A stretch of DNA of 64,000 nt from contig CAZRCZ010000001.1 in NCBI GenBank assembly GCA_964598765.1, positions 342,327 to 406,326 on the forward strand, in the 5' to 3' direction. Positions 6,416-59,289 of the stretch are shown here, piece by piece. This DNA is from an uncultured Candidatus Sumerlaeota bacterium (lineage in GTDB: Bacteria > Sumerlaeota > Sumerlaeia > MVZB01 > JAJFLK01). The notes beneath the pieces were generated by a model. It worked only from the letters and a program-made list of their open reading frames with translations, did no database searches and was not told the DNA's origin. Each line of letters opens with the position of its first letter. Position 1 is the first letter of the stretch. Both the position numbers and the translations under genes were made by a program.

Positions 6416-8907
6416 TGAAATCTCTCATCGCCCGTGAACGCGGACTTCCGCTGTTTTGCTTGGGATCGGCGTTGATTTTGGTGTATGGGCGATTTTTCAT
6501 CGGCTTCGCTCCCGCCGGACGCGACATCGTTCTTCAATATCTCCCATATCAGCAATTGGTCCGGCAGGCGATTTGGCGCGGCCAATGGCCGCTTTGGAAT
6601 CCGGCGACGTTTTGCGGGCGTCCGCTCATGGCCGACATTCAGGTCGGCGTTCTCTATCCTCCGAATTGGCTCCACTGGGTTCTTCCGCTCCCCGTTTCGT
6701 TTGCGATTCTTTTTCTCGCGCACACGGCTTGGTCGCTTTGGGGTTGCTTTCGGTTGGGGAAGACTTGGAATTTCAGTTCTCCGGCTTCTTGCCTCACGGC
6801 GGTTCTTTACACTTTCTGTGGATTTCTCTCGGTCAAACTTCAGACCGGAATCATTTTGTTTCACTACGCGGCGTCGTGGCTTCCGTGGTCCGTGCTCGCC
6901 TTGACGGCGTTGTATCGCGCTCCGTCGCTACGGAGCGCGATTGTTCTGGGGCTCGCTCTTGCCATGTCGTTGTTGGCCGGCGCGCCGCAGATCGCGTTTT
7001 ATTCGTGGCTTCTGGTTGGGGGATTGGCGGTGGGATTGACGTTGGGAGGGAAAAGGGTGGAAGGCGAGGAGCAAAAGGCGATAATCGGAGCGAAAGGAAA
7101 ATTTCTCTGTGGCGTCGCGGGGGCGTTTGGCTTGGCGGTTGCGTTGACGCTGATCCAAACCTATCAGACCTATCAAATGACGAGCGTTTCATTTGATCGG
7201 GGATTGAACGTCGGGATATCGAAACGCTGGGAGACGATGACGGAAGGCTCTTTGCGTCCTGATTTGATGTCCTTGATCCTCGATCCCGATTGGTTCGGTC
7301 CGGGAAATGACGAGATGCAATACGCCGGACCGGAAACGGGCTTCTCCGAGGCGTGCGCTTATCTCCCTTGGCTCGCGTGGGGACTCTTGCTTCCGCTGGG
7401 AGAGTTGATGTGGCGTTCTCTTTCCACTCGGGCGCGCCGAATATTTATTTGTTCGCTCCTCCTTGCAATTTTTTCAGTTTTGATGGCGATGGGACATTAT
7501 TCGCCGATTTTCCGTTTCTTCTTCGATCATGTTCCCGGATTCGATCTTTTCCGCGTTCCCGCGCGATGGATGTTCGGATTCAACGTCGCCGTCTCCGTCG
7601 CCTCCGGAGCGGTTTTCGACGAACTTCTCCGCGCGCGCCCTTTGACGGAAAAATCAAAGTGGACCCTTTTAATTGTGGTTGGTTTGTCTCTTGCCGGCCT
7701 TGCGGCTGTCCGCCTTGGTGTCCGGCAATCGAATTCAGCGCGCGGCGTTGAGACCTTTGCTCCGATTTTCAAACTCTCCATTCCCATCCTTGTAGCAATA
7801 TTCTCGGTGTGGTTATTCGCTTTTTTCCCTGTCCACGTAGGTCGGGCTTGTAGCCAGGCGAATGGTCGCCTTGAAAGGCCGACGTACAATCTTCTCCAAT
7901 TTCTTATTCCGCTATTGGCGACATTGGACCTCGCGCTTGTCGCATGGCCGAATCAAGCCGCCGTCCGCGCCGACAAGTTTTATTCGACCTTCTATTCTCA
8001 AACCCCTCTGGTGAAAAAGTTGAAGGAGATGTCAGCCGGAGGCAGAGTTCTCTGGACCGACGGACTCCTCGACTGGCATCTGGATCAAAACACGCCCGAA
8101 GTCGTCACCAATACCCTCATCATGCAAGGGATGACCGACGCGCGCGGATACGATCCGGTCAACGCGTGGTGGATCGGGACGTGGTTCAATCGTCTCGCGG
8201 GCCTGCCGCCGGAAAATAATCCGAGAGGCTATATGCGCGTCCCGAAAATCGCGCTACCCCCGTGGCTGACGTTGATGGGAGTCGAAACGATTCTGAGCTA
8301 TGAAGACTTGTCATCCCTGCCTGAACTTCAACTTGCGGACCGCGTTGATTTTCCCGAAGGACCGTTGGGGATTTGGACAAACAAAAATTATCGCGGCCTT
8401 GCCTTTGCGGTTCCCTCCGATTCCTCGGAAACAAACGTGGAACTTGATGATCGCGCGAAGGCTCAATCCCTCTCCCAACGCGCCGCTCTTTCGAATCCGA
8501 CCGATCCTCTCAAAGCCGTAGTCTTCGATTCTCTCAATTTTCATCCTTCATCCTTCATCCCTCATCCTTTCGGCGTCCGCGCCGTTGAGGAGGGTCCGAA
8601 TCGTTTTGCCTATCAAACCGATTTCCCCGACGCCGCCCCGTTGCTTTTCGCGCAAAGCGCGTATCCCGGCTGGAGCGTCAAGGTCAACGGCGCTTACGCA
8701 CCGCTTTCCGTCGTGTGCGGCACGTTTTTGGCGGTCGCGGTCCCCGCCGGAAAAAGTCTTGTGGAGTTCGAATATTATCCGCCGTCGGGATTTGAATGGG
8801 CCGAACTGACGAGCCTTGCGACGGCAATCGTCATGATCTTTTGCTTGATCCGCGATTGGCGAAAGGGGAAAACAGACGCTCCGATCAAACCGCAAACTCA
8901 ACCATGA
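6415..8907 (+). CDS. YfhO-family polytopic membrane protein (GT-C-like)
   Basis: ~830-aa ORF, multiple hydrophobic segments, N-terminal region QYLPYQQ...GQWPLWNPATFCGRPLMADIQVGVLYPPNWL resembles YfhO family. ATG at 6415 overlaps the lon stop (TGA 6413-6415); ORF-track start 6412 is TTG. Confidence 0.6.
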   Translation: MKSLIARERGLPLFCLGSALILVYGRFFIGFAPAGRDIVLQYLPYQQLVRQAIWRGQWPLWNPATFCGRPLMADIQVGVLYPPNWLHWVLPLPVSFAILFLAHTAWSLWGCFRLGKTWNFSSPASCLTAVLYTFCGFLSVKLQTGIILFHYAASWLPWSVLALTALYRAPSLRSAIVLGLALAMSLLAGAPQIAFYSWLLVGGLAVGLTLGGKRVEGEEQKAIIGAKGKFLCGVAGAFGLAVALTLIQTYQTYQMTSVSFDRGLNVGISKRWETMTEGSLRPDLMSLILDPDWFGPGNDEMQYAGPETGFSEACAYLPWLAWGLLLPLGELMWRSLSTRARRIFICSLLLAIFSVLMAMGHYSPIFRFFFDHVPGFDLFRVPARWMFGFNVAVSVASGAVFDELLRARPLTEKSKWTLLIVVGLSLAGLAAVRLGVRQSNSARGVETFAPIFKLSIPILVAIFSVWLFAFFPVHVGRACSQANGRLERPTYNLLQFLIPLLATLDLALVAWPNQAAVRADKFYSTFYSQTPLVKKLKEMSAGGRVLWTDGLLDWHLDQNTPEVVTNTLIMQGMTDARGYDPVNAWWIGTWFNRLAGLPPENNPRGYMRVPKIALPPWLTLMGVETILSYEDLSSLPELQLADRVDFPEGPLGIWTNKNYRGLAFAVPSDSSETNVELDDRAKAQSLSQRAALSNPTDPLKAVVFDSLNFHPSSFIPHPFGVRAVEEGPNRFAYQTDFPDAAPLLFAQSAYPGWSVKVNGAYAPLSVVCGTFLAVAVPAGKSLVEFEYYPPSGFEWAELTSLATAIVMIFCLIRDWRKGKTDAPIKPQTQP

Positions 8908-14485: not shown

Positions 14486-14611
14486 CCCCCCAGCTTGGAA
14501 CGATCCCGCGCAAGGCTCAAATCTTTTTTTTGTCACGGATTTTGCGGATTAAACAGATTATGTTTCGAAAAGTCCAAGGCAATATCTGTGTAATCCGCGA
14601 AATCCGCGACT

Positions 14612-16781: not shown

Positions 16782-16840
16782 AAGGATTTTGGATGAGCGG
16801 GAAGAAGGCGGAGTGAAATGAGATTAAAATTAAGATTAGG

Positions 16841-16888
16841 AGCAAGAGCAAGAGCAAGAGCAAGAGTAAGAGTAAGAGTAAGAGCAAG
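16841..16888 (+). repeat. Hexanucleotide tandem repeat (AGCAAG/AGTAAG) x8 in fmt leader
   Basis: agcaag x4, agtaag x3, agcaag x1 read directly; lies 64-111 nt upstream of fmt ATG. Confidence 0.9.
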
Positions 16889-16951
16889 AGAAGCGGAATC
16901 GGAATCTTAAGTTTCCAACCTCAAAACTCGGATCTAAAATTAAAGTTTAAG

Positions 16952-23583: not shown

Positions 23584-23615
23584 GTCTTATATCTCCCTAA
23601 ATTCTATGAATACTT

Positions 23616-23709
23616 AAACACAAAGACACAAAGAAGGCACAAAGAATGGTGAGGCCGTGTGTCTTCCTAATCCCTTGTATTCTTTGTGACTCCTTCGTGT
23701 CTTTGTGTA
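23616..23709. repeat. Imperfect palindrome of tandem CACAAAG heptamers (CACAAAG subfamily, copy 1)
   Basis: Arms aaacacaaagacacaaagaaggcacaaagaatg and cattctttgtgactccttcgtgtctttgtgt separated by ~30 nt; shares a 23-nt identical core with 57445-57571. Confidence 0.85.
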
Positions 23710-23715
23710 TAATCT

Positions 23716-27608: not shown

Positions 27609-28262
27609 ATGAACGACCTCAATCCGACTTCCGATGAGCCTCCCTCGCTCGGTCGAACCGTTTCCTGTTTTATTCTTTCCGGTGGGTCTGCCCGCCGGGC
27701 CGAAGGGAAGAACAAGTCATTCCTGATCGCCGAGGGAGAACCGATTCTCGACCAACAAATTCACCGTCTCCGTCCCTCCTTCCACGATGGAATCTTCATT
27801 CTCACCGACCGCTCCGCCGATTTTGAAGGCTACAATCTGATTTGCATGGCCGATCCTCCTCTGCCCGGATTGGGCGATTTGCGTTGCGGCATGAGGGGAC
27901 TTTACTCGGCTCTGTCGCTTTCCCCCACTCCTTGGGTTTTCGTTCTGGCGTGCGATATGCCGTTCCCTGACATGGAGATCGCTCAATCGCTCATCCAAGG
28001 TTTGAGCTTCCAAGCGCGCGAGATGCCGACTCAGTTTCGCGGAATTTGTCTTCGCGGAGCCAAAGGTCCCGAGCCGTTTCATGCGATTTATCACCAAAGC
28101 CTCGCCGAAGATTTGCGCCTCCGCTTGACCGCGTCCGGCGATTTATCGCTCCAGAACTGGATCCGATCCGAACCGCGCATCCTCCTTACTTCCGGCAAGG
28201 AAAATGGAACGAAGAACGCGGCGATCTCGCGTTGTCTTCAGAATTTCAATCAATCATTGTAG
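27609..28262 (+). CDS. MobA-like nucleotidyltransferase (molybdenum cofactor guanylyltransferase-like)
   Basis: ILSGGSARRAEGKNKSFL N-terminal NTP-transferase motif and LACDMPF. Confidence 0.65.
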   Translation: MNDLNPTSDEPPSLGRTVSCFILSGGSARRAEGKNKSFLIAEGEPILDQQIHRLRPSFHDGIFILTDRSADFEGYNLICMADPPLPGLGDLRCGMRGLYSALSLSPTPWVFVLACDMPFPDMEIAQSLIQGLSFQAREMPTQFRGICLRGAKGPEPFHAIYHQSLAEDLRLRLTASGDLSLQNWIRSEPRILLTSGKENGTKNAAISRCLQNFNQSL

Positions 28263-28283
28263 GGGCGACCCGCAGGGTCGCCC
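28263..28283. terminator. Bidirectional hairpin between convergent genes
   Basis: Perfect 9-bp stem gggcgaccc-gca-gggtcgccc immediately after the mobA-like stop and before the kup stop. Confidence 0.55.
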
Positions 28284-31080: not shown

Positions 31081-31180
31081 TCTTCCCATCATTGCTCCTA
31101 CTCTTACTCATTCTCCTTCTCCTGAGAAAAGCATAAACCGCAAGGTGTTGAGAATGAGGAGGAGTAGGAGTATGAGAATG
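31081..31180 (+). repeat. Purine-rich imperfect inverted repeat in leader of M28 peptidase gene
   Basis: ctcctactcttactcattctcc ... gagaatgaggaggagtaggag(tatgagaatgag); the purine-rich arm ends 9 nt before the ATG at 31189. Confidence 0.7.
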
Positions 31181-31188
31181 AGAACGAT

Positions 31189-32901
31189 ATGGAACCAACC
31201 AACACCGACAAGCGATTTTCATTACGCGACCTTCTCGCTTTCGTGCCGATTCTCGTCTTGGCGCTCTGCGCGGCGTTCGCGTTAATGCGGATCACGCCCC
31301 CCAAACCGAAACCCGCCGACGCGCCCGCCTCGGAATTTTCCGCTGAGCGTGCGCTGATCCATCTGCACCAGATCGCCAAAGCGCCGCATCCCTCCGGCTC
31401 CGAGGAACACCGCCGCGTCCGGGAATACGTCATCGGCGAATTAAAAAAATTGGGTCTGGAGCCGGAAATCCAACAATCGGTTTCGGACGAGAAATCAGGC
31501 GGCCATTCCGCCCCCGGCATGACGTTCACCAACATCATGGCGCGATGGAAGGGAACGGACAATTCCCGCGCTCTCTTGATCGCCTGTCACTACGACAGCG
31601 TGGCGATGGGACCCGGCGCGAGCGACGACGGAGCGGGCGTCGTGGCGGTTCTGGAAACGATCCGCGCCTTAAAATCCGGCGCGCCGCCCAAGAACGATCT
31701 GATCTTTCTTTTCACCGACGGCGAGGAGGTCTGCCTCTGCGGAGCGCGGGCGTTCGCGGAGAATCATCCTTGGGCGAAGGACGTCGGATTGGTCGTGAAT
31801 TTCGAGGCGCGTGGGACCGCCGGACCTTCCATCATGTTCGAGACCAGCGCCGAGAACGGTTGGCTGATCTCCCAATACGCCCGCTCCGCCGTTCATCCCT
31901 CCGCCAGTTCGCTCAGCTACGAAGTCTATAAGCGAATGCCGAACGACACCGATCTGACGGTGTTCAAGAAACGGGGATTCGCGGGATTGAATTTCGCGTT
32001 CATCAAGAACGTCAAATTTTATCACACGGCCAACGACACGGTCGAAAATCTGGACAAGCGGAGCCTCCAGCACCACGGCGAGAACGCGCTGGCCATGGCG
32101 CGATGTTTCGGCAATCTCGATCTGCGGGAAATCAAAAAAACGAACGACGTCTATTTCGACGTCCTCGGCGCGTTTGTCATTCGATATTCTGAACATTGGG
32201 CGATTCCGTTGGCGATATTCGCGGTTCTGTTTTATCTGGTGATTACAATGACGGCGATAAAACTTGGCGAGTTTTCGTGGCGGCTGGGATTATTACGATT
32301 GGGTCTGTCGCTGGCCACATTTATTCTTTGGCCGCTCTTGCTCCATCTCCTCTCACTGGTGGGTCATATCAACTCCATTTCCAAGAAGGACCCATCTGGA
32401 TTTGCTTTCACGACCAATCCCTACGCGCTCTTGGGATTTGTTTTGGCGGCGCTTGCTCCCTTTTTCGGGTACTATTTGGCATGGAAGGGGGGTTCGGTCG
32501 TGGAGAAGACGATTGCCGGAGTATTCTGGTGGGTTATTCTGACCCTCCTGACGGTCTTTTTCCTTCCCGGAGCCAGCTATCTCTTCACTTGGCCGCTCAT
32601 CTTTGCCGCGCTCGGAATAGGATTTGTCCTCCAATCCCAGCGAATAGGAGGAAGTCCGATTGTGAGATCGTTTGCTTTGCTTCCTTTCAGTATTCCCGCC
32701 ATCATCCTTTGGACCCCGACCATCTATCTTCTGTTTTTGGCAATGACGCTCAAACTAACAGGCGTGATCGTCTTATTCGTGATGTTGAATCTTGAACTTT
32801 TTGCCCCTCACTCCGCGCCTTTATCGCCGCGACTACGTTCCGTTGCAATAATCGCAACCGTGGTGATCGGCATCGGCCTTGTAACCTATATTCTCCGGTG
32901 A
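31189..32901 (+). CDS. M28-family metallopeptidase with C-terminal polytopic membrane domain
   Basis: Peptidase M28 motifs (HYDSV, SDDGAGV, DGEE, metal ligands) in N-terminal half; C-terminal half with multiple TM helices. Confidence 0.75.
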   Translation: MEPTNTDKRFSLRDLLAFVPILVLALCAAFALMRITPPKPKPADAPASEFSAERALIHLHQIAKAPHPSGSEEHRRVREYVIGELKKLGLEPEIQQSVSDEKSGGHSAPGMTFTNIMARWKGTDNSRALLIACHYDSVAMGPGASDDGAGVVAVLETIRALKSGAPPKNDLIFLFTDGEEVCLCGARAFAENHPWAKDVGLVVNFEARGTAGPSIMFETSAENGWLISQYARSAVHPSASSLSYEVYKRMPNDTDLTVFKKRGFAGLNFAFIKNVKFYHTANDTVENLDKRSLQHHGENALAMARCFGNLDLREIKKTNDVYFDVLGAFVIRYSEHWAIPLAIFAVLFYLVITMTAIKLGEFSWRLGLLRLGLSLATFILWPLLLHLLSLVGHINSISKKDPSGFAFTTNPYALLGFVLAALAPFFGYYLAWKGGSVVEKTIAGVFWWVILTLLTVFFLPGASYLFTWPLIFAALGIGFVLQSQRIGGSPIVRSFALLPFSIPAIILWTPTIYLLFLAMTLKLTGVIVLFVMLNLELFAPHSAPLSPRLRSVAIIATVVIGIGLVTYILR

Positions 32902-33461: not shown

Positions 33462-34625
33462 ATGAAACTCAACCCTTACCCTGCCCTCTCTCTCGGAAAG
33501 GGAGAGGGTTTGCATGGGCAAAAATCCACCCGAGCCGCGACCGTGAGGGAGCGCCCAGCCCGCGAAATTCTTGTTTTCGGGCGCTCCCTCACGGTCGCGG
33601 CTCTGATGTTGCAGTTCTTCTTTTTCTTTGCTCGCGCCGCTGAAATCGCGCTCCATCCCGGGCATCACGAAATCACGTTCAAGAACGGCAAGACCGCCCA
33701 AGGGGAAATTCTGGCCGTCGAAGGGGAAAAATTTCGCTTCCAGCCCTACGAGGGGTCCGCGTTTGTCCTTCCGTTGGATCGAATCCAAACCGCCCGTGCG
33801 CTTTCGCCGGCGGAAGGCGTGCTTTTTCAATCGCGCCAGATGGCGGAGAAGGGAAAGCTCGATGAAGCCGTGCGATTATTGACGCGGAGCGCCGGGATGG
33901 AGGGAGGAGCCGCGCTGGAAGGGGAGCTGATGAGGCGGCTGAACGAATTGAATCGCCTGATAAAAGCGTCGCAGAAAAAAGAATTGGCGGAATTCGAGAA
34001 AAAATTCGAGGAATTACTGGACCGCAATCAACTTCACGACGCGCTCGATCTGGCGAGGCAAACGCTCAAGGATCATCCCGACGATCCCGACCTGCTCGGC
34101 GACGCCGCGCTGGCGGAATTTCGGATTCATCGCGGGCAAGGGGGGATCGCGAGCGAGTTTCGCTCGTTCCATTTGGATCGTTTGAAAAAAGCCGATCCGC
34201 AATCGCCAATCCTGCTCGGGATTCAAGCGGAAATGGGGGTCTCGGAGAAGCTTCAGGCCAAATGGGAATCCGACCGTAAGGCGTTCTTGGCGACCGCCTT
34301 GGACGATGCGGCGCGCTTTTACGAGAATTTCCAACTTCAAGAAGCCAAGGACATCCTCGACAAGGCGCTGGCGCTCGATCCGCCCGATGATCTGCTTGGT
34401 CCGCTGAAGGAACTGGCGGCCAAAGTGGACGCCGAAATTGCCGGCGGGTCCAAGGATCAGGCGCTACGGGAACGCGAACGCCTCCGCGCGCTCGAAGAAA
34501 AAACAAAGATGGAAGGGGAGTCGTCGGGCAAATCGCTGAGTGAATCCGAATCCAAGAAACTGGATAAAAAGCGCGCCCGCAGAATTCAGCAACGCGCGAT
34601 TGACCAAAGCCGTGGACCGAGATGA
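33462..34625 (+). CDS. Hypothetical exported coiled-coil / TPR-like protein
   Basis: 387-aa ORF, hydrophobic N-terminal segment, helical repeat-like C-terminus. True start may be ATG 33606 because 33532-33603 forms a perfect hairpin. Confidence 0.4.
   Translation: MKLNPYPALSLGKGEGLHGQKSTRAATVRERPAREILVFGRSLTVAALMLQFFFFFARAAEIALHPGHHEITFKNGKTAQGEILAVEGEKFRFQPYEGSAFVLPLDRIQTARALSPAEGVLFQSRQMAEKGKLDEAVRLLTRSAGMEGGAALEGELMRRLNELNRLIKASQKKELAEFEKKFEELLDRNQLHDALDLARQTLKDHPDDPDLLGDAALAEFRIHRGQGGIASEFRSFHLDRLKKADPQSPILLGIQAEMGVSEKLQAKWESDRKAFLATALDDAARFYENFQLQEAKDILDKALALDPPDDLLGPLKELAAKVDAEIAGGSKDQALRERERLRALEEKTKMEGESSGKSLSESESKKLDKKRARRIQQRAIDQSRGPR
33532..33603. repeat. Perfect 25-bp inverted repeat (hairpin)
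   Basis: gagccgcgaccgtgagggagcgccc ... gggcgctccctcacggtcgcggctc with 22-nt loop; located 78 nt after the PaaI stop. Confidence 0.85.
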
Positions 34626-38582: not shown

Positions 38583-38624
38583 CCACAACCGAGCAGTGAC
38601 CGCACGGTCGCGGCTCGGTTGTGG
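38583..38624 (-). terminator. Hairpin immediately downstream of hemA stop
   Basis: Perfect 12-bp stem ccacaaccgagc / gctcggttgtgg with 18-nt loop, directly after the hemA stop codon. Confidence 0.5.
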
Positions 38625-46882: not shown

Positions 46883-46957
46883 TTCACCACAGAGACACAG
46901 AGAGGGTGAAAAAATGCGGACTCGCACTTTTCTACTTCTCTGTGTCTGCGTGGTGAA
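46883..46957. repeat. Imperfect palindrome of tandem CACAGAG heptamers (between convergent genes)
   Basis: Arms ttcaccacagagacacagagagg and cttctctgtgtctgcgtggtgaa; loop ~29 nt; sits between the mqn-like stop and the GT4 stop. Confidence 0.85.
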
Positions 46958-46958
46958 C

Positions 46959-48140
46959 TCATTCCGGCCAAGGGATGTTCTTATCGGCGAATAATCGCCG
47001 ATAGACTTTTTTTTGCTTCTCGATCACCATTTCCTCGCTGAAAAATTCCTCGGCGCGGCGTCTTCCGGCTTCGCCCACTTTTTTTCTCAGATCGGGGGAG
47101 GCGAGAAGCTCGGCCAAGGCGTCGGCCAGCGCGTCGGCGTCGCGCGGCGGGATGAGCCGTCCGGTCCGGCTGTCCACGACCTCCTCCCGGCAACCGCGAA
47201 TGTCGGACGCGATCACCGGCAATCCGCTGGCCATCGCCTCCAGAATCGAGCGCGGCATACCCTCGCGCCAAGAGGGAAGAACGAACAGGTCGCTTGCGGC
47301 CAGCAGACGCGGAACGTCACGGCGCAATCCCGCGAAAATGACGCAATCGGCCAGATGGAATTCGTTGACCTTGGCGTGGATTTCTTCAGCCGAACGGTCA
47401 TGTTCGCTCGGCAATGCCTCGCCTATGACGACGGCGCGCGCGTTGGGGAAGCGTTCTCGAATTTTTGCCCACGCCTTCAAAAATTCCAGATACCCCTTCT
47501 CCCGCACGAGCCGCCCCATCATCGTCACGACGGGACCTTCGCCGGGTTTGATTCCCAATCCGGCGCGAACCTCGGCGCGCTCGTCCACGCGCAAAAGATC
47601 GGGACGGAATTTTTGGAGGTCAACCCCGTTGCCGATGGTCATGGCGCGGTCGAGCGGCGCGATCTTGCAGGCGACGGCGGTTTGCAGGTCTTCCTCGCTC
47701 TGCGAAAAAAGAAAGTCGGCTTTGCGTTGCGCCCAACGCTCCAGCGCGATGTAAACCGCGCGGACGAGCGGACTCATCCGGTCATGAAAATAAAATCCGT
47801 GCGCAGTGTAAAGGACGAGCGGGACGCCGGAGCGTCGCGCCGCCGGACGCCCCAGCAACGCCGCGACCGGCGTGTGAACGTGAACGACCGTGTAATCCGC
47901 CGTCTTGAACAACTTGCGAAGCCCGCGATAACCTTGGATTAGTTTCAGCGGATTTTTGCTCCGGGAGATCGGCACGGCGCGGACGGGGAATCCCTCGGCC
48001 TGAATCGCCGGAACAAAAACCCCGGGCGCGCAGGCCAACTCGACTTCAAATCCCCATTCCCTCTGCGCGCGCATCAGGGGCAGGAGAAAATGATAAGCCG
48101 TGAAATCCACGGCGCAGAGCTGGAGGACGCGGGGTTTCAT
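46959..48140 (-). CDS. Glycosyltransferase family 4 (GT-B fold)
   Basis: 393-aa; GT4 C-terminal signature (GLPVIASDIRGCREEVVDSRTGRLIPP). Confidence 0.8.
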   Translation of the reverse strand: MKPRVLQLCAVDFTAYHFLLPLMRAQREWGFEVELACAPGVFVPAIQAEGFPVRAVPISRSKNPLKLIQGYRGLRKLFKTADYTVVHVHTPVAALLGRPAARRSGVPLVLYTAHGFYFHDRMSPLVRAVYIALERWAQRKADFLFSQSEEDLQTAVACKIAPLDRAMTIGNGVDLQKFRPDLLRVDERAEVRAGLGIKPGEGPVVTMMGRLVREKGYLEFLKAWAKIRERFPNARAVVIGEALPSEHDRSAEEIHAKVNEFHLADCVIFAGLRRDVPRLLAASDLFVLPSWREGMPRSILEAMASGLPVIASDIRGCREEVVDSRTGRLIPPRDADALADALAELLASPDLRKKVGEAGRRRAEEFFSEEMVIEKQKKVYRRLFADKNIPWPE

Positions 48141-48187: not shown

Positions 48188-48281
48188 AACGCAGAGGCGC
48201 GGAGGACGCAGAGATTGAATGAAGGTCTTGTCTCAATTTGAAATACTCTGCGTTTCTCCGCGTTCTCTGCGCCTCTGCGTT
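48188..48281. repeat. Imperfect palindrome of tandem CGCAGAG units
   Basis: Arms aacgcagaggcgcggaggacgcagag and ctctgcgtttctccgcgttctctgcgcctctgcgtt; between MaoC-like stop and GT4 start. Confidence 0.85.
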
Positions 48282-49155: not shown

Positions 49156-52100
49156 TCACTTCAGCGTCGAGATGAACTCCACCAAATCGCGCAATTCGGA
49201 TTTGGCGAGATTTTCAGAAATGTCTTCGGGCATCGAGGAGAGATTGTGCTGGCGGGAGACGATTTGATCCTTGGGGAGCGTCATCTTCGTCACTCGCGGG
49301 CCTTTAGTGGCTTCCGACTCCCACTTTTCGTTCTTATCCTTCTCCTTCTCATCCTCCTTTTCGTCCTTTTTTGCTTCCGTCCCCTTCGGCGCATCCTCCT
49401 CCTCGACAAATTCCTCCCCTTCTTCTTGGACTGGAATCTCCAGTAGAATCTGGTTTCCTTCTTCTTCCAGAACCCGTCCGGCGTATTCCTTGCCGTCTTT
49501 CATCGTCAGCGTGACGTTCTCAAATCCCTCGGCGATTTGCGCGTTGGGATGAAGAATGGATTCGAGGATGTATTCGCGCCCCTTGCGTGTGCCGACGCTC
49601 GGTAGCTCCGGCCCGACTTCGCCTCCCACTTTGCTTTTAACCGTATGGCATTTCTGGCAGGTGACTTCAGTTTTCTCGAAGAAAATTTTCTCTCCCCGCT
49701 CGGCGTTGCCGCCGAAGAGCGACTCGCGGAATCCGCCGAGCGGATCATCCGTGGAAATCGCGGATTGATACCGCGCCAACTTCATTTTGATCTCATCGTT
49801 CGGATGCTTCTGGGCCGCTTCGAGCAGATCGAGTTGAATTTCGGCGGGGACTTTTTTCGCCGCCAGCGAATCGAGCCACGTCGAGAGCAGTTGATCGAAT
49901 TGCGCTCCCTCCAAATCGGCGAGCGTCGCCAGCGCCCCTTGCTTTTCGAGGATGCTTCCCCCGTTGAGCGCCGTCGCCAAGACGCTCGCCGCTCCGGCGG
50001 GATCGAGTTTGGCGAGTTGAGCGTTCCCCTCGTTGCGTAGCGCGTCGGCGGCGTCGGCGCGGGCGAGGTTCACCGCCTTGGCGAGGTTGGGGTCCTCGAA
50101 TTCGCCGAGCGCCCTCAGCGCCTCAACTCGCGCCTCGGTTGGCTTTTTCGCGTCGGAGAGCAACGCAAAGAGGGGCGCGCCCGCCTCAGCGACTTGATAC
50201 TGTCCGGCGAGTTGCGCGCAGGCCTGCAAAATTTTGTTCGGCGCGGAGCGGAGAAGTTCGGGCAGGATCGGCCTCAAGGCGCGAGCCGCGGTTTCGGGAT
50301 CGCGCTTGGGCAGAGGACGCCAGACGCCGATCACGCGGTCGCGCCCCGACGGAGACGCCCAATCTTTTAACTCGCCGAGCGCTTCGAGCCTCACGACCTC
50401 GGGCGGCTCCGAGCGCGACGCGAATTCGGCGATGGCTTTGGCGTTCTCCGCGCCGCCCAATCGGAAATTCGCGTTGAGAATCCTCAACATCACCGGCTTG
50501 CCGACCACGTCGGCGTCGGCCATTTTCAGAATGTTTTCGCTCTGGCCGATCATCCCCGCCAGTTCGGGTAGGGCGTCGGCAATCGGAACGTCGTTGATCG
50601 CATGAGCCGCCTCGCTGACGAGCGCCGGATCGCGGTCCTTGAGGAATCGCGCAATTTCCGGTTTTTGCATTCGACGCAAGGCGAGCAAAATTCCCATCCG
50701 CACCGCCGACGATTCGTCATCGGCGTGTTTCAGCAACGCCTCCGCGTCGCCAATCCCGACCAATCCCATCACTCCGGCATGGCGCAGATACGGATCGGCG
50801 TCGTTATTTTCGCGAAGCATTTCCGCCAGCGCGGAGATGTATCTGGTTTTAATTTCTTCCGATGGAGGCATCGCCGGAACGCCGGGATTGACGATCTTGC
50901 CAAGACTCATCGCCGTAAAAAAACGGACGCGAAGACTTGCATCTTTGAGTAGATCCAATAATTCCGTCAAATGTGACTCATTTGAATTTAATATTACCGA
51001 ATGTATGTCGCTCAAGACCTTGATTGCTTGGGCACGAATTTCGGCGTTTTCGTCTTTCAAGCACTCAACCAAGACGGCCTCTCCGCGATTGCGCGGATCA
51101 GACAAAAATTCTCCAAGTCCTTTGCCCAACAGTTCGCCTGCCGCTTTTTCCCCTTCTGGTCCTAACTTAAGATCGTTTCCGGAAATTAAAGTAGAGACGA
51201 CAAGAGAAAAAATGAATTGGAACTCTTTCTCTTTATCTTGGGGAGATTGGGCTACGGCTTCGGATTTCGGCTCGACCTTAGGTCCGAGTTTGCTCAGAAC
51301 TTCTCCGATTCCCCAAATTGCGTGGAGCCGTGCCCATGGGCTTCGAGAGCATTTCTCAGCCAATTGTAAAAGCGCCCGTGCTTGAGCATCCGGGTATTCT
51401 CCCGATGTCCAAGAATTTTTGAACTCCTCGGAGTAGGTTTGCGGACTTATGAATGCAATCGTGCCCAGCGTTCCAAATAGCATAAAATCCGAATCACGCC
51501 CAGTCTGGAGCCTTCTCAAATCCCTCCGTGCCAACTCATACTGCGCCTCGAACCGCACTCTTTGATCCTGGTGCGCGAGCAGTTCCCCCAACTCATAATC
51601 GCTGTAGCGATCCAGATTCCCCGCGAGGATTTCCTTTGCCTCCTTGACGAGCGGATCGTTTTTCACCGCGGGATCGAAGGCGTGATAGAGGCGTCCCTTG
51701 TGCGGCTGATCCCAACCTTCGGTCCAATCGGTCCAATAAATGCCCCCCTCAGCGCCGAAATCCACGTCGGTCACGAGGGACCCCTTGAGGAAATCCTCGC
51801 GGTCGGTCATCTCGAACGAGGCCCCCTTGGGTTGGACCTTGAAGGTGTGAATCAGGCTTATCCCCGCTCCGCCGCGAAAATCGCACAGAAAAAAATGATC
51901 CTTGTATCGTTCCGGCATTCCCGTGCCGGGATAAAACGCGAACCCCGCCGGTCCGGCGGCGACGTGCGCGACGGGAGGCACGATATACGCGGCCTGTCCC
52001 TTCCACGGGAGGTGCCAGATTTTTTCGCCGTTCCACGGACCGCGCTGGACCGGCTTTTCGATCCACTGGTAGCCGATCCGCCAGCCGCTGTCGCCCCCCT

Positions 52101-53061
52101 CGACGCAATAGACGAGCCGCGCCTTGTCGCCGGCGTCGGAGTTGTTGTCGCCGGTGAAGAGATTGCCGTAGTCGTCAAAGACGAGTTCCTGCGGGTTGCG
52201 GAGTCCGGTGCAGAACGGCTCCAATTGCGAGCCGTCGGGATTGCAACGGAAGACCGCGCCGGTGTCGGGAAGGTCAATGACGCGCCCTTCGGTTTCGATA
52301 TGCGCGCCGCGGTCGCCGATGCTGAAATAAAGTTTGCCGTCGGGGCCTTTGCGCAGACCGTGGAGATCGTGGCCGAGAAAATTAAAGTGGACGCCGTAGC
52401 CCGTGCTGAGCGATTTGCGTTCGTCGGCCTTGCCATCGCCGTCGGTGTCGCGCAGTTTCCAGAGATCCGGGATGCAGGTGTAGTAAATGTCCCCTTGATC
52501 GGCGAGTAATCCCGCGCCGACGCCGTCCTCCGCGTGGTTGAATCCGTCGGCATAAACGACGGCGCGGTCGGCTTTGCCGTCGCCGTCGGTGTCTTCGAGC
52601 AGACGGATGCGCTCGTGCTGTTTGTCGTAGTCCGCGAACGACTCGCCGAGGTTTTTCTTCATCGCGGCGAGCCGATCCGCGACGGTCCGGCTCGCCAGAT
52701 CGTCGTCGAGCCAGAGGCGGTGCGTCCGCATGTCAAGCACGCCGTCATAGAGGCGGAACGTCTCGCCGACGTAAAACCGCCCCTTGTTGTCCAAGCAGAA
52801 ACAGACCGGATTGGCGAGCATCGGCTCGGCGGCGAAAAGCTCGATCTTGAATCCGTCGGCGATTTTGAATTTCTTGATCGCCTTTTCCCCTTCGTCGGAG
52901 GCGGGGTTGATTTGGGGATGATAGGCGGGGTCTTCGGCAAAGGCGAAGGTAAAAAGGGAAAATAAAATCACCACAGAGGCGCAGAGGCACAGAGTAGGGG
53001 CGACCCGTTGAGTCGCCCGCTTTCTTCTCTGTGTCTCTGTGACTCTGTGGTTTTTCTTCAT
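49156..53061 (-). CDS. Large exported protein with beta-propeller 'membrane-bound dehydrogenase'-like domain, HEAT repeats and C-terminal cytochrome-c (CxxCH) domain
   Basis: 1301 aa; N-terminal signal-like segment, HEAT-repeat middle, CQKCH heme-binding motif near C-terminus, acidic Lys/Glu-rich tail. Confidence 0.75.
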   Translation of the reverse strand: MKKNHRVTETQRRKRATQRVAPTLCLCASVVILFSLFTFAFAEDPAYHPQINPASDEGEKAIKKFKIADGFKIELFAAEPMLANPVCFCLDNKGRFYVGETFRLYDGVLDMRTHRLWLDDDLASRTVADRLAAMKKNLGESFADYDKQHERIRLLEDTDGDGKADRAVVYADGFNHAEDGVGAGLLADQGDIYYTCIPDLWKLRDTDGDGKADERKSLSTGYGVHFNFLGHDLHGLRKGPDGKLYFSIGDRGAHIETEGRVIDLPDTGAVFRCNPDGSQLEPFCTGLRNPQELVFDDYGNLFTGDNNSDAGDKARLVYCVEGGDSGWRIGYQWIEKPVQRGPWNGEKIWHLPWKGQAAYIVPPVAHVAAGPAGFAFYPGTGMPERYKDHFFLCDFRGGAGISLIHTFKVQPKGASFEMTDREDFLKGSLVTDVDFGAEGGIYWTDWTEGWDQPHKGRLYHAFDPAVKNDPLVKEAKEILAGNLDRYSDYELGELLAHQDQRVRFEAQYELARRDLRRLQTGRDSDFMLFGTLGTIAFISPQTYSEEFKNSWTSGEYPDAQARALLQLAEKCSRSPWARLHAIWGIGEVLSKLGPKVEPKSEAVAQSPQDKEKEFQFIFSLVVSTLISGNDLKLGPEGEKAAGELLGKGLGEFLSDPRNRGEAVLVECLKDENAEIRAQAIKVLSDIHSVILNSNESHLTELLDLLKDASLRVRFFTAMSLGKIVNPGVPAMPPSEEIKTRYISALAEMLRENNDADPYLRHAGVMGLVGIGDAEALLKHADDESSAVRMGILLALRRMQKPEIARFLKDRDPALVSEAAHAINDVPIADALPELAGMIGQSENILKMADADVVGKPVMLRILNANFRLGGAENAKAIAEFASRSEPPEVVRLEALGELKDWASPSGRDRVIGVWRPLPKRDPETAARALRPILPELLRSAPNKILQACAQLAGQYQVAEAGAPLFALLSDAKKPTEARVEALRALGEFEDPNLAKAVNLARADAADALRNEGNAQLAKLDPAGAASVLATALNGGSILEKQGALATLADLEGAQFDQLLSTWLDSLAAKKVPAEIQLDLLEAAQKHPNDEIKMKLARYQSAISTDDPLGGFRESLFGGNAERGEKIFFEKTEVTCQKCHTVKSKVGGEVGPELPSVGTRKGREYILESILHPNAQIAEGFENVTLTMKDGKEYAGRVLEEEGNQILLEIPVQEEGEEFVEEEDAPKGTEAKKDEKEDEKEKDKNEKWESEATKGPRVTKMTLPKDQIVSRQHNLSSMPEDISENLAKSELRDLVEFISTLK
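52968..53052. repeat. Imperfect palindrome of tandem CACAGAG units (overlaps 5' end of the large dehydrogenase ORF)
   Basis: Arms atcaccacagaggcgcagaggcacagag and ttctctgtgtctctgtgactctgtggtt with an inner gggcgac-ccgttga-gtcgccc hairpin. Confidence 0.85.
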
Positions 53062-53064
53062 TGT

Positions 53065-54015
53065 TCAATCCTTCAAATACTTCGACAAATCGGGCGAGAT
53101 CAATTCCTTGATCTCCGGCGTCTCCAGATTTTCCTTCGTCACCAATTCCAATCGCGTGCGGATCGTCTTCTCGACTTTTTGTCCGCGCAACTGCGCGACC
53201 ATCGCCCGGACCCCTTGCTCGCCGATGTTGACGGGGTCCTGAACGACCAGACCCTGAATCTCATCCTTGCGCAGGGCTTCGATCAGGCGGTCGGTTGCGT
53301 CGAAGCCGACGAACCTGATTTTGCCCGCGCGACCGGCTCCGCGCAAAGCCAAAAGCATTCCATAGGTCACCGGCGCGTTGGGGCAAAAGACGCCGTCAAT
53401 TTGCGGAAAGCGATTGAGCAAATCCTCTCCCTTCTGTTGCGCCCCTTCGACCGTCGCTCCGGCAAATTGATTGGAGGAGATGATTTCGATTTTCGGGAAT
53501 TGTTTTTTGATCCCCGCGAGAAATCCTTCCTCCCGATTCGTGTTGCTCGCCGAGCCTTCGACGTAACGGAGAAGGACGACCTTCCCCTGACCGTTCAACA
53601 ATTTGCCGAGCCGCTCGGCCGCCAATTCGCCGCCGCGAGAATTGTCGGTCGCGACAAAACTGACATGCTCGTCCCCCTGCAAATCGGAATCAATCACGAC
53701 GGTCGGGATTCCGGCCTTTTTCGCGTCGCGCACGGGATGGACCAGCGCCTTATCGTCGAGCGGAGCCAAGACAATGCCGTTCACTTTTCGGCTGATAAAA
53801 TCCTCGACGACCTGAATCTGTTGCTCGCGGTCGTCTTCGCGCTGGGGTCCCTTCCAAATGATCTTCACGTTCAGATCGCGCGCGGCCTTTTCCGCTCCGG
53901 CATGGACTGATTTCCAAAATTCGTGCGTCGTGCCTTTGGGAATGACGGCGATGGTTTGAGCGAGCGCGAAGCGGCCCATGAGCGACAGGCTTAACAGGCA
54001 TATGTTGATCTTCAT
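53065..54015 (-). CDS. Periplasmic sugar-binding protein (ABC transporter substrate-binding, RbsB/LacI-type fold)
   Basis: Signal peptide MKINICLLSLSLMGRFALA; type I periplasmic binding fold motifs (KVNGIVLAPLD, IPTVVIDSD). Start at ATG 54015. Confidence 0.75.
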   Translation of the reverse strand: MKINICLLSLSLMGRFALAQTIAVIPKGTTHEFWKSVHAGAEKAARDLNVKIIWKGPQREDDREQQIQVVEDFISRKVNGIVLAPLDDKALVHPVRDAKKAGIPTVVIDSDLQGDEHVSFVATDNSRGGELAAERLGKLLNGQGKVVLLRYVEGSASNTNREEGFLAGIKKQFPKIEIISSNQFAGATVEGAQQKGEDLLNRFPQIDGVFCPNAPVTYGMLLALRGAGRAGKIRFVGFDATDRLIEALRKDEIQGLVVQDPVNIGEQGVRAMVAQLRGQKVEKTIRTRLELVTKENLETPEIKELISPDLSKYLKD

Positions 54016-54031
54016 GTTTATTCCCTTCTTA

Positions 54032-54113
54032 TTCACCACAGAGACGCAGAGGTACAGAGAAATACTTGGACGCTTTTCACTTCTTCTCTGTGTCTCCTTG
54101 CCTCTGTGGTGAA
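54032..54113. repeat. Imperfect palindrome of tandem CACAGAG units
   Basis: Arms ttcaccacagagacgcagaggtacagagaa and ttctctgtgtctccttgcctctgtggtgaa; immediately upstream of the sugar-binding-protein start. Confidence 0.85.
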
Positions 54114-54766
54114 TCATCTTTTACTTTTCGATACCTCCCCACAAACACCACCGGTTCCGCGGTCGCCTTATCACCGTAAATACCGCTCCCCTCAACGCAA
54201 TGCGCATCCCCCTCCACCCACTCGCGGAACGACTCAAGAACGCTCGGCGCGGAGCGGGACCAGAACAAATAATTCCCTTCGATCTTCCCAGTGCGAAAAA
54301 TCACCTCGCCGCCGTTTTTGCGGATGATCTTGCACCGGATCGTTTTCAGTTCGAAGTCCGCGCTGTAGAGCGCGCTCTCGCGTACCGTCTTGCCGGTCTT
54401 GGGATCGGTGATCTCGAAATGCCCCTCCTGCTGAAATTCCTTGTCGGCGAGGACGTGGCGATAATCCTGTCGGACTTTGACCTTGGAGACCGGCTCGCCG
54501 GTGAATTTGTAGGTGGCGAGCTCTCCCTCCCAAACTCCATCCCATGCCTTGAAGGGAGAAGCGACCGATTGCGCCGTCGCGGGAACCGAGAGGGCTTTGA
54601 TGAGCGCCAAGACGCCAAACCCCGAGATCCACAGAAGGAGAACTATGACCAACAGACGCGAAACCCAGAGGGGATAAGCGCGTTCCGATTTGTCTTCAGA
54701 AGATTCCAAGGATTTTTTTCCGTTTCTTGTCAGAGGCGGGCTTCTTTGCGTTGCCGTTTTCCGCAT
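54077..54766 (-). CDS. Hypothetical membrane-anchored protein
   Basis: 229-aa ORF with one N-terminal TM helix; overlaps upstream peptidase gene end and the 54032-54113 repeat; start uncertain. Confidence 0.4.
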   Translation of the reverse strand: MRKTATQRSPPLTRNGKKSLESSEDKSERAYPLWVSRLLVIVLLLWISGFGVLALIKALSVPATAQSVASPFKAWDGVWEGELATYKFTGEPVSKVKVRQDYRHVLADKEFQQEGHFEITDPKTGKTVRESALYSADFELKTIRCKIIRKNGGEVIFRTGKIEGNYLFWSRSAPSVLESFREWVEGDAHCVEGSGIYGDKATAEPVVFVGRYRKVKDDSPQRQGDTEKK

Positions 54767-57371: not shown

Positions 57372-57444
57372 CCCTCTCTCACGCTTTAATTGCTCTGGAA
57401 TCGTGCAGAAAATCTCTGAAATCCGCAAGGGAGTTGGCAGAGGG

Positions 57445-57571
57445 ATTAAACACAAAGACACAAAGAAGGCGCAAAGGTCACAAAGAATGAAGGGATTCCG
57501 CGAATGAAAATCAGAGGCGGATGTTATTCCTTCGTGTCCTTCGTGCCTTCTTTGTGTCTTTGTGTTTAATC
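57445..57571. repeat. Imperfect palindrome of tandem CACAAAG heptamers (CACAAAG subfamily, copy 2)
   Basis: Arms gattaaacacaaagacacaaagaaggcgcaaaggtcacaaagaatgaagg and ccttcgtgtccttcgtgccttctttgtgtctttgtgtttaatc. Confidence 0.85.
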
Positions 57572-59253: not shown

Positions 59254-59289
59254 TTCTTGCTCTTGCTCTTACTCTTGCATCTGCTCTTA
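59254..59289 (-). repeat. Hexanucleotide (AAGAGC-like) tandem repeat in nadE leader
   Basis: Plus-strand cttgct cttgct cttact cttgca tctgct cttaat; in nadE sense it reads attaagagcagatgcaagagtaagagcaagagcaag, 25-60 nt upstream of the proposed start. Confidence 0.85.

Follow-up and report, generated by a model that had tools for sequence, protein, structure and literature searches.

This analysis concerns a window of 64 kb, that is, the whole stretch of DNA, and in particular two palindromes, A and B, that flank the gene of a periplasmic sugar-binding protein. Judged by their sequence, both hairpins are copies of a palindromic repeat family of the general form TTCACC-(ACAGAGNC)n ... (GNCTCTGT)n-GGTGAA, which is apparently widespread and undescribed. 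Palindrome B overlaps the end of the preceding gene, and palindrome A lies within the 5' end of the open reading frame (ORF) that follows, which encodes a dehydrogenase-like protein of 1301 amino acids (aa). On balance, an in-frame, translated insertion in the signal peptide of this protein, with translation starting at ATG 53061, is favored for copy A, as somewhat more likely than not.

Palindromes of the window and related loci without them

Both palindromes were recovered almost exactly where a preliminary description, made from the sequence alone, had placed them, and the GT4 glycosyltransferase gene (46959-48140) is likewise bracketed, as described there, by the copies at 46883-46957 and 48188-48281. 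The family copies of the window, none of which is assigned a strand, and two GTAG-tagged hairpins are the following:

52970-53051, no strand: palindrome A (copy A), with 28-nt arms at 52970-52997 and 53024-53051 that are 86% complementary, and a 26-nt loop
54031-54114, no strand: palindrome B (copy B), with 31-nt arms that are 81% complementary, and a 22-nt loop
46883-46957, no strand: family copy where the radical-SAM and GT4 genes converge
48188-48281, no strand: family copy with the CGCAGAG variant in both arms, between the gene of a 274-aa hypothetical protein and the GT4 gene
57444-57571, no strand: family copy of the CACAAAG variant with 42-nt arms, past the NAD synthase stop and ahead of the M1 peptidase start
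23614-23712, no strand: family copy of the CACAAAG variant, located 3 nt past a GFO/IDH/MocA oxidoreductase stop codon, with ApbE starting 30 nt further on
52994-53018, plus strand: GTAG-tagged hairpin resembling a repetitive extragenic palindrome (REP), nested in the loop of copy A and reading GTAG followed by GGGCGAC-CCGTTGA-GTCGCCC
28259-28283: GTAG-tagged hairpin that reads GTAGGGGCGACCCGCAGGGTCGCCC and separates the convergent genes of NTP-transferase and Kup

In each arm of the six palindromes, between two and four octamers (CACAGAGN, or its variants CACAAAG and CGCAGAG) follow one another in tandem; in palindrome A each arm has three of the CACAGAGN type. Palindrome B shows the canonical ends, ATTCACC...GGTGAAT. 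The window contains the motif CACAGAG 12 times, where 2.9 occurrences would be expected, a count that none of 100 shuffles reached, and all 12 tandem runs of CRCRRAG octamers (0.1 expected) fall within the six palindromes. When folded as RNA, the six copies reach -42 to -77 kcal/mol (z -6 to -12.5), with -52.1 kcal/mol for copy A (z -8.9), -42.1 kcal/mol for copy B (z -7.5), and the strongest fold for the copy at 57444-57571 (-77.4 kcal/mol, z -12.5). Independent Logan contigs of run SRR12313479 carry the identical sequence, so that the palindromes are not an assembly artifact of the window; exact-protein look-ups matched the same sample only. The sugar-binding protein is likewise on record from an NCBI contig of 454 kb.

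A likeness between the loop of copy A and a hairpin at 28263-28283 had also been noticed: the loop carries GTAGGGGCGACCCGTTGAGTCGCCC, the first 13 nt of which recur exactly from position 28259 and nowhere else within the window. By itself, GGGCGAC is not enriched in the window. The only sibling of the 28259-28283 hairpin in the window is the loop of copy A, and the TAG of its GTAG doubles as the stop codon of the NTP-transferase gene. At its center, the copy at 46883-46957 has a weak hairpin that resembles a terminator in both directions (AAAA-GUGCG..CGCAU-UUUUUU).

Homologues of the sugar-binding protein with 73-79% identity were traced to their contigs, giving three loci (L141, L142, and L143) that probably belong to Candidatus Sumerlaeota, the group that also holds the nearest named relatives of the protein (78% identity). 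L142 and L143 retain the order M1 peptidase, hypothetical gene, and sugar-binding gene, and in both the stop of the hypothetical gene overlaps the start of the binding-protein gene (ATGA and GTGA, respectively). None of the three loci has a palindrome on either side of the sugar-binding gene, and no long hairpins or octamer runs were found in their 31 kb together. The preliminary description had proposed a comparison of related loci for the presence of the flanking palindromes, and by this comparison the notion of the gene and its palindromes as a conserved unit is refuted. Since related loci carry the gene without them, the palindromes are read as lineage-specific additions rather than as parts of a cassette. 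In the relatives, the binding-protein gene is followed by other genes, in L141 and L142 by a tightly coupled GT2 gene (TAATG, TAAATG), so the junction between the sugar-binding and dehydrogenase genes is a synteny break that coincides with copy A. More generally, the copies of the window coincide with the edges of conserved gene blocks.

This comparison bears on the proposal of a mobile cassette, integron-like or composite, made up of the sugar-binding gene and its two palindromes; this proposal must be considered highly improbable. The gene is indeed bracketed by inverted-repeat elements, and synteny breaks just downstream of it. However, the same gene order exists in L142 and L143 without palindromes, neither attC core sites nor a target duplication accompany the elements, and no integrase or transposase was found among the 38 ORFs of the 64-kb window scanned with Pfam. 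In addition, the stretch at 46.9-57.6 kb contains five of the six copies, which occupy five out of seven gene junctions in a row (p about 0.002-0.02), and at such a local copy density a gene bracketed by two copies is an expected by-product. The elements were also rejected as integron attC sites, given that their ends lack R''/R' core sites (RYYYAAC ... GTTRRRY) and that the flanked genes are conserved operon members in the relatives.

Copies A and B and their overlap with reading frames

Between 46959 and 59378 the minus strand carries all genes, in the order NAD synthase, M1 peptidase, hypothetical gene, Peripla_BP_4, 1301-aa protein, 274-aa hypothetical protein, and GT4 glycosyltransferase. 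The features in contact with the two palindromes are the following:

54077-54766, minus strand: hypothetical gene, whose orthologue overlaps the start of the sugar-binding gene in L142 and L143, and whose 3' end now runs into palindrome B
53065-54015, minus strand: gene of the periplasmic sugar-binding protein (Peripla_BP_4), with ATG 54015 and the Shine-Dalgarno sequence GAAGGG at 54028-54023
49156-53061, minus strand: gene of the PVC-type heme-binding CxxCH dehydrogenase-like protein, 1301 aa, with ATG 53061 and the Shine-Dalgarno sequence GAAGGA at 53074-53069
52974-52972 and 52971-52969, minus strand: alternative GTG-GTG start codons, which lie within palindrome A's 3' arm and lack an upstream Shine-Dalgarno sequence

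The 1301-aa protein holds DUF7133, HEAT, and cytochrome c domains according to Pfam, and scores above the NCBIfam cut-offs for PVC-type heme-binding CxxCH proteins (189 bits for TIGR02604, cut-off 122; 81.5 bits for TIGR02603, cut-off 68). The rest of the window is core chromosome, including genes for Lon, DsbD, sigma-70, DnaB, EF-G, S7, S12, and heme genes.

The N-terminus of the 1301-aa ORF reads MKKNHRVTETQRRKRATQRVAPTLCLCASVVILFSLFTFAFAEDP, and residues 4-31 are encoded by palindrome A, which bears out the earlier observation that the downstream copy lies inside the 5' end of this ORF. Two explanations had been offered for this overlap, namely, that the palindrome was recruited into coding sequence or that the true start is an internal GTG. 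The Shine-Dalgarno sequence, the coupling to the preceding gene, and the missing spacer favor recruitment, without closing the question. ATG 53061 is the only ATG available; it stands 3 nt past the stop of the sugar-binding gene, with GAAGGA 7 nt upstream, and the resulting TGA-ACA-ATG coupling resembles the TAAATG and TAATG of the gene found downstream in the relatives. Because the in-frame stop leaves room for only four codons, and because a Shine-Dalgarno sequence precedes internal start codons by chance in about 10% of cases, the joint chance of finding an in-frame ATG with such a sequence there is estimated at about 1%. No start codon or Shine-Dalgarno sequence is found between palindrome A and the hydrophobic core. 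Four other co-directional copies leave 15-81 nt that hold the next start codon, and copy A alone abuts coding sequence (ILFSLFTFAFA) without a spacer.

Removal of the element points in the same direction. Deletion of 84 nt (53051-52968) leaves ATG AAG AAA ATT TTA TTT ..., that is, MKKILFSLFTFAFA followed by EDP, which reads as a textbook short signal peptide, and the alternative deletion of 81 nt gives MKKNILF.... The predicted sequence of the empty site is accordingly GGATTGAACAATGAAGAAAATTTTATTTTCCCTTTTTACC, or a variant with AAC. Cleavage of the dehydrogenase signal peptide is proposed between AFA and ED, and the mature end EDPAYHPQINPASDEGEKAIKKF (EDPAY...PASDEGEKAIKKF) aligns with the homologue P0079 right after its own signal peptide, where ...LLA is followed by EDKPYSPKLAKASDEGEKAIKRF. 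A peptide MKKNHRVTETQRR... would be the product of initiation at 53061 and not of a GTG start.

The competing account, in which palindrome A is a purely intergenic 3' hairpin of the sugar-binding gene, places the start of the dehydrogenase at a GTG within the terminal CTCTGTGGTGA, giving M(V)VILFSLFTFAFA, and regards the upstream ATG and its open frame as a coincidence or as the relic of a former neighboring gene. This account is possible, although doubtful. The GTG start would yield a signal peptide of 13-14 residues without any basic residue, whereas, among about 60 homologues looked over by eye, nearly all have K or R in the n-region. Moreover, the GTG codons are paired at the base of the -52 kcal/mol stem, an in-frame ATG with its Shine-Dalgarno sequence would have to be explained by that chance of roughly 1%, and every other co-directional copy leaves a spacer with a start codon. 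What speaks for a GTG start is, first, that read-through of such elements is a coin toss, and second, that the gene caller is demonstrably wrong in a like manner at the sugar-binding gene. The synteny break at the junction also means that ATG 53061 could belong to a lost gene, and many genes of the window do without a Shine-Dalgarno sequence.

Some of these points weigh directly against an in-frame insertion, together with several others. Elements of up to 110 nt are open in 51% of frames, compared to 55% for random segments, and since they are open in about half of the frames, the read-through of copy A is no evidence of translation; the neighboring sugar-binding ORF shows the same kind of false extension. 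About half of the genes in the window have no Shine-Dalgarno sequence, which makes its absence before the GTG codons weak evidence. The -52 kcal/mol hairpin, which begins at position +11 of the ORF, might be an obstacle to initiation at ATG 53061 or a target of RNase III. At 14-15 residues, the reconstructed signal peptide is shorter than that of any homologue, and the present one, with 42 residues, is longer than most. Copy A is also a single case, being the only one among 170 elements that clearly abuts a hydrophobic core in frame. A genome scan and a protein search for the dehydrogenase locus gave a best match of 64-67% identity with neither synteny nor palindromes, and no empty site for copy A was found. 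Finally, neither a transposase nor a target duplication nor a master copy was found in the window and the extracted loci.

The search for further in-frame cases among the 170 elements left only L260, which is doubtful; apparent intragenic copies in L091, L102, and L107 turned out to be spurious ORFs or 5' leaders. A Tat signal in QRRKRA was considered and discarded, with no match in NCBIfam. The two best homologues of the dehydrogenase lie in unrelated contexts and are fragmented genes. Their starts, MHKN and MHKK, resemble MKKN, but are not counted as evidence.

How an in-frame insertion could be tolerated is suggested by the translation of the element. In copy A, the purine-rich 5' arm encodes the basic HRVTETQRRKR and the pyrimidine-rich 3' arm the hydrophobic LCLCASVV, and in any frame the 5' arm gives a basic peptide of the type H-R-x-T-E-x-Q-R and the 3' arm a hydrophobic one of the type L-C-x-S-V-x-L-C. 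Because the basic arm precedes the hydrophobic one, the insert lengthens the n- and h-regions in the right order without breaking them. One mismatched spacer position in the 3' arm of copy A reads GCC (Ala), where the perfect complement, GAC, would put an Asp in the hydrophobic core, although this may be chance.

At copy B, the product of the hypothetical gene aligns with its orthologues up to ...VGRYRKVKDD. The 11 residues that follow and end the protein, SPQRQGDTEKK, are encoded by the 5' arm of copy B (minus strand), with the stop codon in the loop; the tails of the orthologues are variable and acidic. The sugar-binding gene has retained its own GAAGGG and ATG 54015, 15 nt past palindrome B, and MKINICLLSLSLMGRFALA, the signal peptide of its product, agrees with the orthologous ones. 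In the public gene call (53065-54117, protein cluster P0121), the protein has 350 aa and starts from ATG 54117, across palindrome B. Given that the orthologue N-termini match a start at ATG 54015 (316 aa), the longer version is evidently a false extension through the palindrome.

In the proposed sequence of events, the lineage of the window, probably Candidatus Sumerlaeota, would have acquired the copies after its split from the sequenced relatives. Copies would usually settle within a few bases past a stop codon, but here the genes of the operon overlapped or were 3 nt apart and offered no free space, which would be why copies A and B landed in coding sequence. Copy B would have landed in the 3' end of the preceding gene, to which it would now provide the final 11 codons and the stop. 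Copy A would have entered the dehydrogenase gene 10 nt from its start, as a block of 84 nt (or 81 nt) that keeps the frame, between the basic MKK start and the hydrophobic core ILFSLFTFAFA, and signal peptidase, cutting between AFA and ED, would remove the whole peptide and leave the mature enzyme unchanged. The copying itself may have proceeded either by transposition, through an enzyme yet to be named, or by octamer slippage followed by quasipalindrome template switching that symmetrizes the arms.

The family in other genomes and the symmetry of its arms

The pattern CACCACAGAGNCNCAGAG was searched in metagenome and viral (IMG/VR) collections, and the counts given here for the family hold among the matches listed. 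These comprise at least 120 stretches of metagenome and at least 120 of viral or phage DNA, with the GC content of the host loci ranging from 0.42 to 0.75. In 54 aligned copies the hairpins share their ends, with TTCA directly before CCACAGAG and TGAA directly after CTCTGTGG (ends also written TTCACCACAGAG), and beyond TTCA and TGAA the flanks of these 54 copies are unrelated, without target-site duplication. The extracted hairpins have arms of 2-4 octamers and loops of 4-194 nt that are mostly unrelated, some of them holding other hairpins. A downstream inverted partner is present for 67 of 102 units, while some pairs are oppositely arranged and some units are solo. Regarding position, the stop of a long ORF is found within -45 to +40 nt for 36 of the 66 metagenome and window hairpins (55%), compared to 6% of random positions, and a stop lies nearby for 34 of the 98 viral hairpins, compared to 8.5% of random positions.

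Real phage head and packaging modules, encoding terminase, portal, and major head protein, carry multiple copies between genes, and the IMG/VR loci L193, L147, L158, and L177 contain 3-7 CACAGAG palindromes each between structural genes. The phage subgroup formed by L149, L150, and L253 has a conserved GC-rich core, ACTCCCGCGCCGCTGCGCGGCGCAAC, within the arms. The subfamily with the opposite arrangement (TTCTCTGTGCAACCTCTGTGTTCTCTGTGTCTCTGTGGT, 7-22 nt, and ACCACAGAG...GTTGCACAGAGAA; found in L038, L039, L135, L137, L037, L033, and L117) has arms that are near-identical across loci and short spacers that are unrelated. Hairpins of the same design are built in other genomes from other units, such as AGTTCCG, TCGGGTG, CACGGATG, or CACAGAT. 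Comparison of two related viral loci, L250:4269-4404 and L228:9040-9350, at about 76% identity, reveals presence and absence of an element, with insertion boundaries too diverged to read. In a second phage pair, CACAGAG arms surround a GC-rich hairpin in one member, and the other has GC-rich hairpins only.

The search for an autonomous element revealed no convincing transposase between distant inverted units. A scan of the whole window at Rfam gathering thresholds gave no match, and a scan of 46.8-57.7 kb by E-value returned only generic hairpin matches resembling miRNA precursors. Six exact 15-mers from the arms had no occurrence in the searched literature, where keyword searches gave only general papers on REPs and on miniature transposable elements with inverted repeats (MITEs).

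The symmetry of the stems was analyzed by aligning the outer 22 nt of both arms in 44 copies. The arms pair at 92.8% of positions, compared to 83.4% in shuffles, and double-sided changes number 104 against 45 expected, two values that none of 500 shuffles reached. The variable eighth position of the octamer covaries between the arms, and in each variant copy of the window both arms show one and the same variant. Counted on the upstream gene's strand, mismatches of the G·U and A·C kinds are equally frequent (25 vs. 23, p = 0.89, in 32 hairpins with one unambiguous upstream gene), as they are in the window (9 vs. 10). Strand-specific selection on RNA should favor G·U, and the symmetry therefore looks like a property of the DNA. 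The simplest reading is that the copies are born as near-perfect DNA palindromes, or are re-symmetrized at the DNA level, and then decay neutrally. Template switching within quasipalindromes is a known mutational route, and its combination with octamer slippage would yield the observed arm pattern.

These results also bear on whether the hairpins are selected RNA elements instead of selfish DNA, acting as RNase III substrates or as blocks to 3' exonucleases that stabilize the sugar-binding cistron. REPs downstream of malE in E. coli give a stable mRNA segment, and stems of 27-42 bp, as found here, would be RNase III substrates. Correia elements are an example of repeats that RNase III binds or cleaves (PMC2649163). 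Together with stems of suitable length, the strongly non-random position right past stop codons, in bacteria and phages alike, would agree with such a role, as would the related phages L238 and L161, in which a CACAGAG-type hairpin at one intergenic site is replaced by one of the GCGGATTT/CTGATCTG type, so that different hairpin classes occupy the same place. Nevertheless, this explanation is unlikely: G·U shows no excess over A·C on the sense strand, related loci manage without hairpins at these junctions, no U-tract follows the stem, whose flanks are T-rich on the 5' side and A-rich on the 3' side, and cutting copy A would sever the dehydrogenase ORF from its start codon. The missing U-tract and the composition of the flanks likewise led to the rejection of intrinsic (Rho-independent) terminators, the only terminator-like prediction for copy A being antisense.

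A broader interpretation, put forward only tentatively, is that the family belongs to an undescribed, cross-lineage type of 'tandem-unit palindromes' with units of 6-9 nt (GCGGATTT, AGTTCCG, TCGGGTG, CACGGATG). Such palindromes would be common to environmental bacteria and phages, and would arise or grow at the DNA level around existing 3' hairpins, either by octamer slippage and quasipalindrome template switching or through an unknown enzyme. They might be absorbed into signal peptides, which is conceivable because their translation gives a basic arm and then a hydrophobic one, or even seed them.

Besides the CACAGAG family, the window contains several other palindromes and repeats. The palindrome at 14532-14610 belongs to another unit class (GUCGCGGAUUUCGCGGAUUACACAGAU..., of the GCGGATTT type), and stands directly past a canonical terminator (GGGGAGA..TCTCCCC+TTTTT) downstream of the sigma-70 gene; in the metagenome locus L048, units of the GCGGATTT type are also nested in a CACAGAG element. 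The palindrome at 31095-31187, directly upstream of the M28 peptidase start at 31189, has arms of tandem hexamers (CTCCTA CTCTTA CTCATT ... / ...GAGTAGGAG). Those at 33527-33608 and 38583-38624 have GAGCCGCGACCG in common, the latter being located between hemA and rpsL. The former is contained in the 5' portion of ORF 33462-34625, and right at its end stands an ATG (about 33606), after which MLQFFFFFARAAE follows; this ORF is likely another false N-terminal extension across a palindrome. Simple tandem repeats include (GAGCAA/GAGTAA) x 9 at 16838-16890, between SDR and formyltransferase genes, a short tandem repeat (TCTTGC) x 3-4 at 59255-59276, and a heptamer run, TTCATCC x 4, at 8539-8567.

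Comparison with known repeats and significance

Among the closest resemblances is that to the REP, BIME, and REPIN sequences of Enterobacteria and Pseudomonas, with their GTAG- and CGTC-tagged families (PMC3733652). Like them, the family consists of short, high-copy extragenic repeats, mostly in inverted pairs that fold into a long hairpin, located past stop codons between co-directional or convergent genes and occasionally within genes, and the loop of copy A encloses a genuine GTAG-tagged hairpin. However, the unit of the family, that is, one arm, is a tandem octamer array without dyad symmetry of its own, whereas the REP unit is an imperfect palindrome of 20-40 nt. The family ends in TTCACC instead of GTAG or CGTC, with GTAG present only on the nested hairpin at 52994-53018. 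The spacer between its arms is unrelated from copy to copy and varies from 4 to 194 nt, and its motif extends over a GC range of 0.42-0.75 and into phages. In addition, no RAYT gene (Y1 HUH transposase) was seen among the 38 ORFs scanned with Pfam in these 64 kb of genome.

Rickettsia palindromic elements and other intragenic MITEs insert in frame in protein genes and are tolerated as an extra peptide (reviewed in PMC10969869). Similarly, copy A would enter its ORF in frame, and deletion of 81 or 84 nt would restore a signal peptide. In contrast, the host is unrelated and the sequence probably so, and the Rickettsia elements, of about 100-150 bp, have a conserved encoded peptide and are commonly found within ORFs, whereas an in-frame coding insertion is exceptional here (about 1 in 170) and affects a cleavable signal peptide. 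Correia elements of Neisseria, also known as NEMIS (PMC2649163), share with the family the terminal inverted repeats, co-transcription with neighboring genes, long RNA hairpins, and presence or absence between related genomes, but their conserved core, TA target duplication, and IHF sites are not seen in the palindrome family. Terminal inverted repeats are also the likeness to MITEs, from which the family differs in having no target-site duplication, unrelated loops in the window and in most loci, and no parent insertion sequence among the distant inverted units searched. Drosophila Foldback transposons have long inverted arms of tandem short repeats around a variable center. The likeness to Foldback is one of architecture only, as these are eukaryotic, kilobase-scale, and transposase-linked, and no homology is implied.

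The family is thus one of palindromic intergenic repeats that fail the defining tests of REPs, MITEs, terminators, and integrons, and the coding overlaps of copies A and B are a local consequence of an operon without spacers. For genome annotation, this means that such elements, being open in many frames, mislead gene callers, and HRGTE.QR or LCLC.SV motifs probably mark many 'hypothetical proteins' as translated hairpins. The locus illustrates how selfish or structural DNA can enter coding sequence where it does the least harm, in a variable C-terminal tail and in a signal peptide that is cleaved off. A sequence-conserved palindrome family that is common to diverse uncultured bacteria and phages, and that has no known mobilizing enzyme, raises the questions of which agent copies it and of whether it affects operon expression or genome rearrangement.

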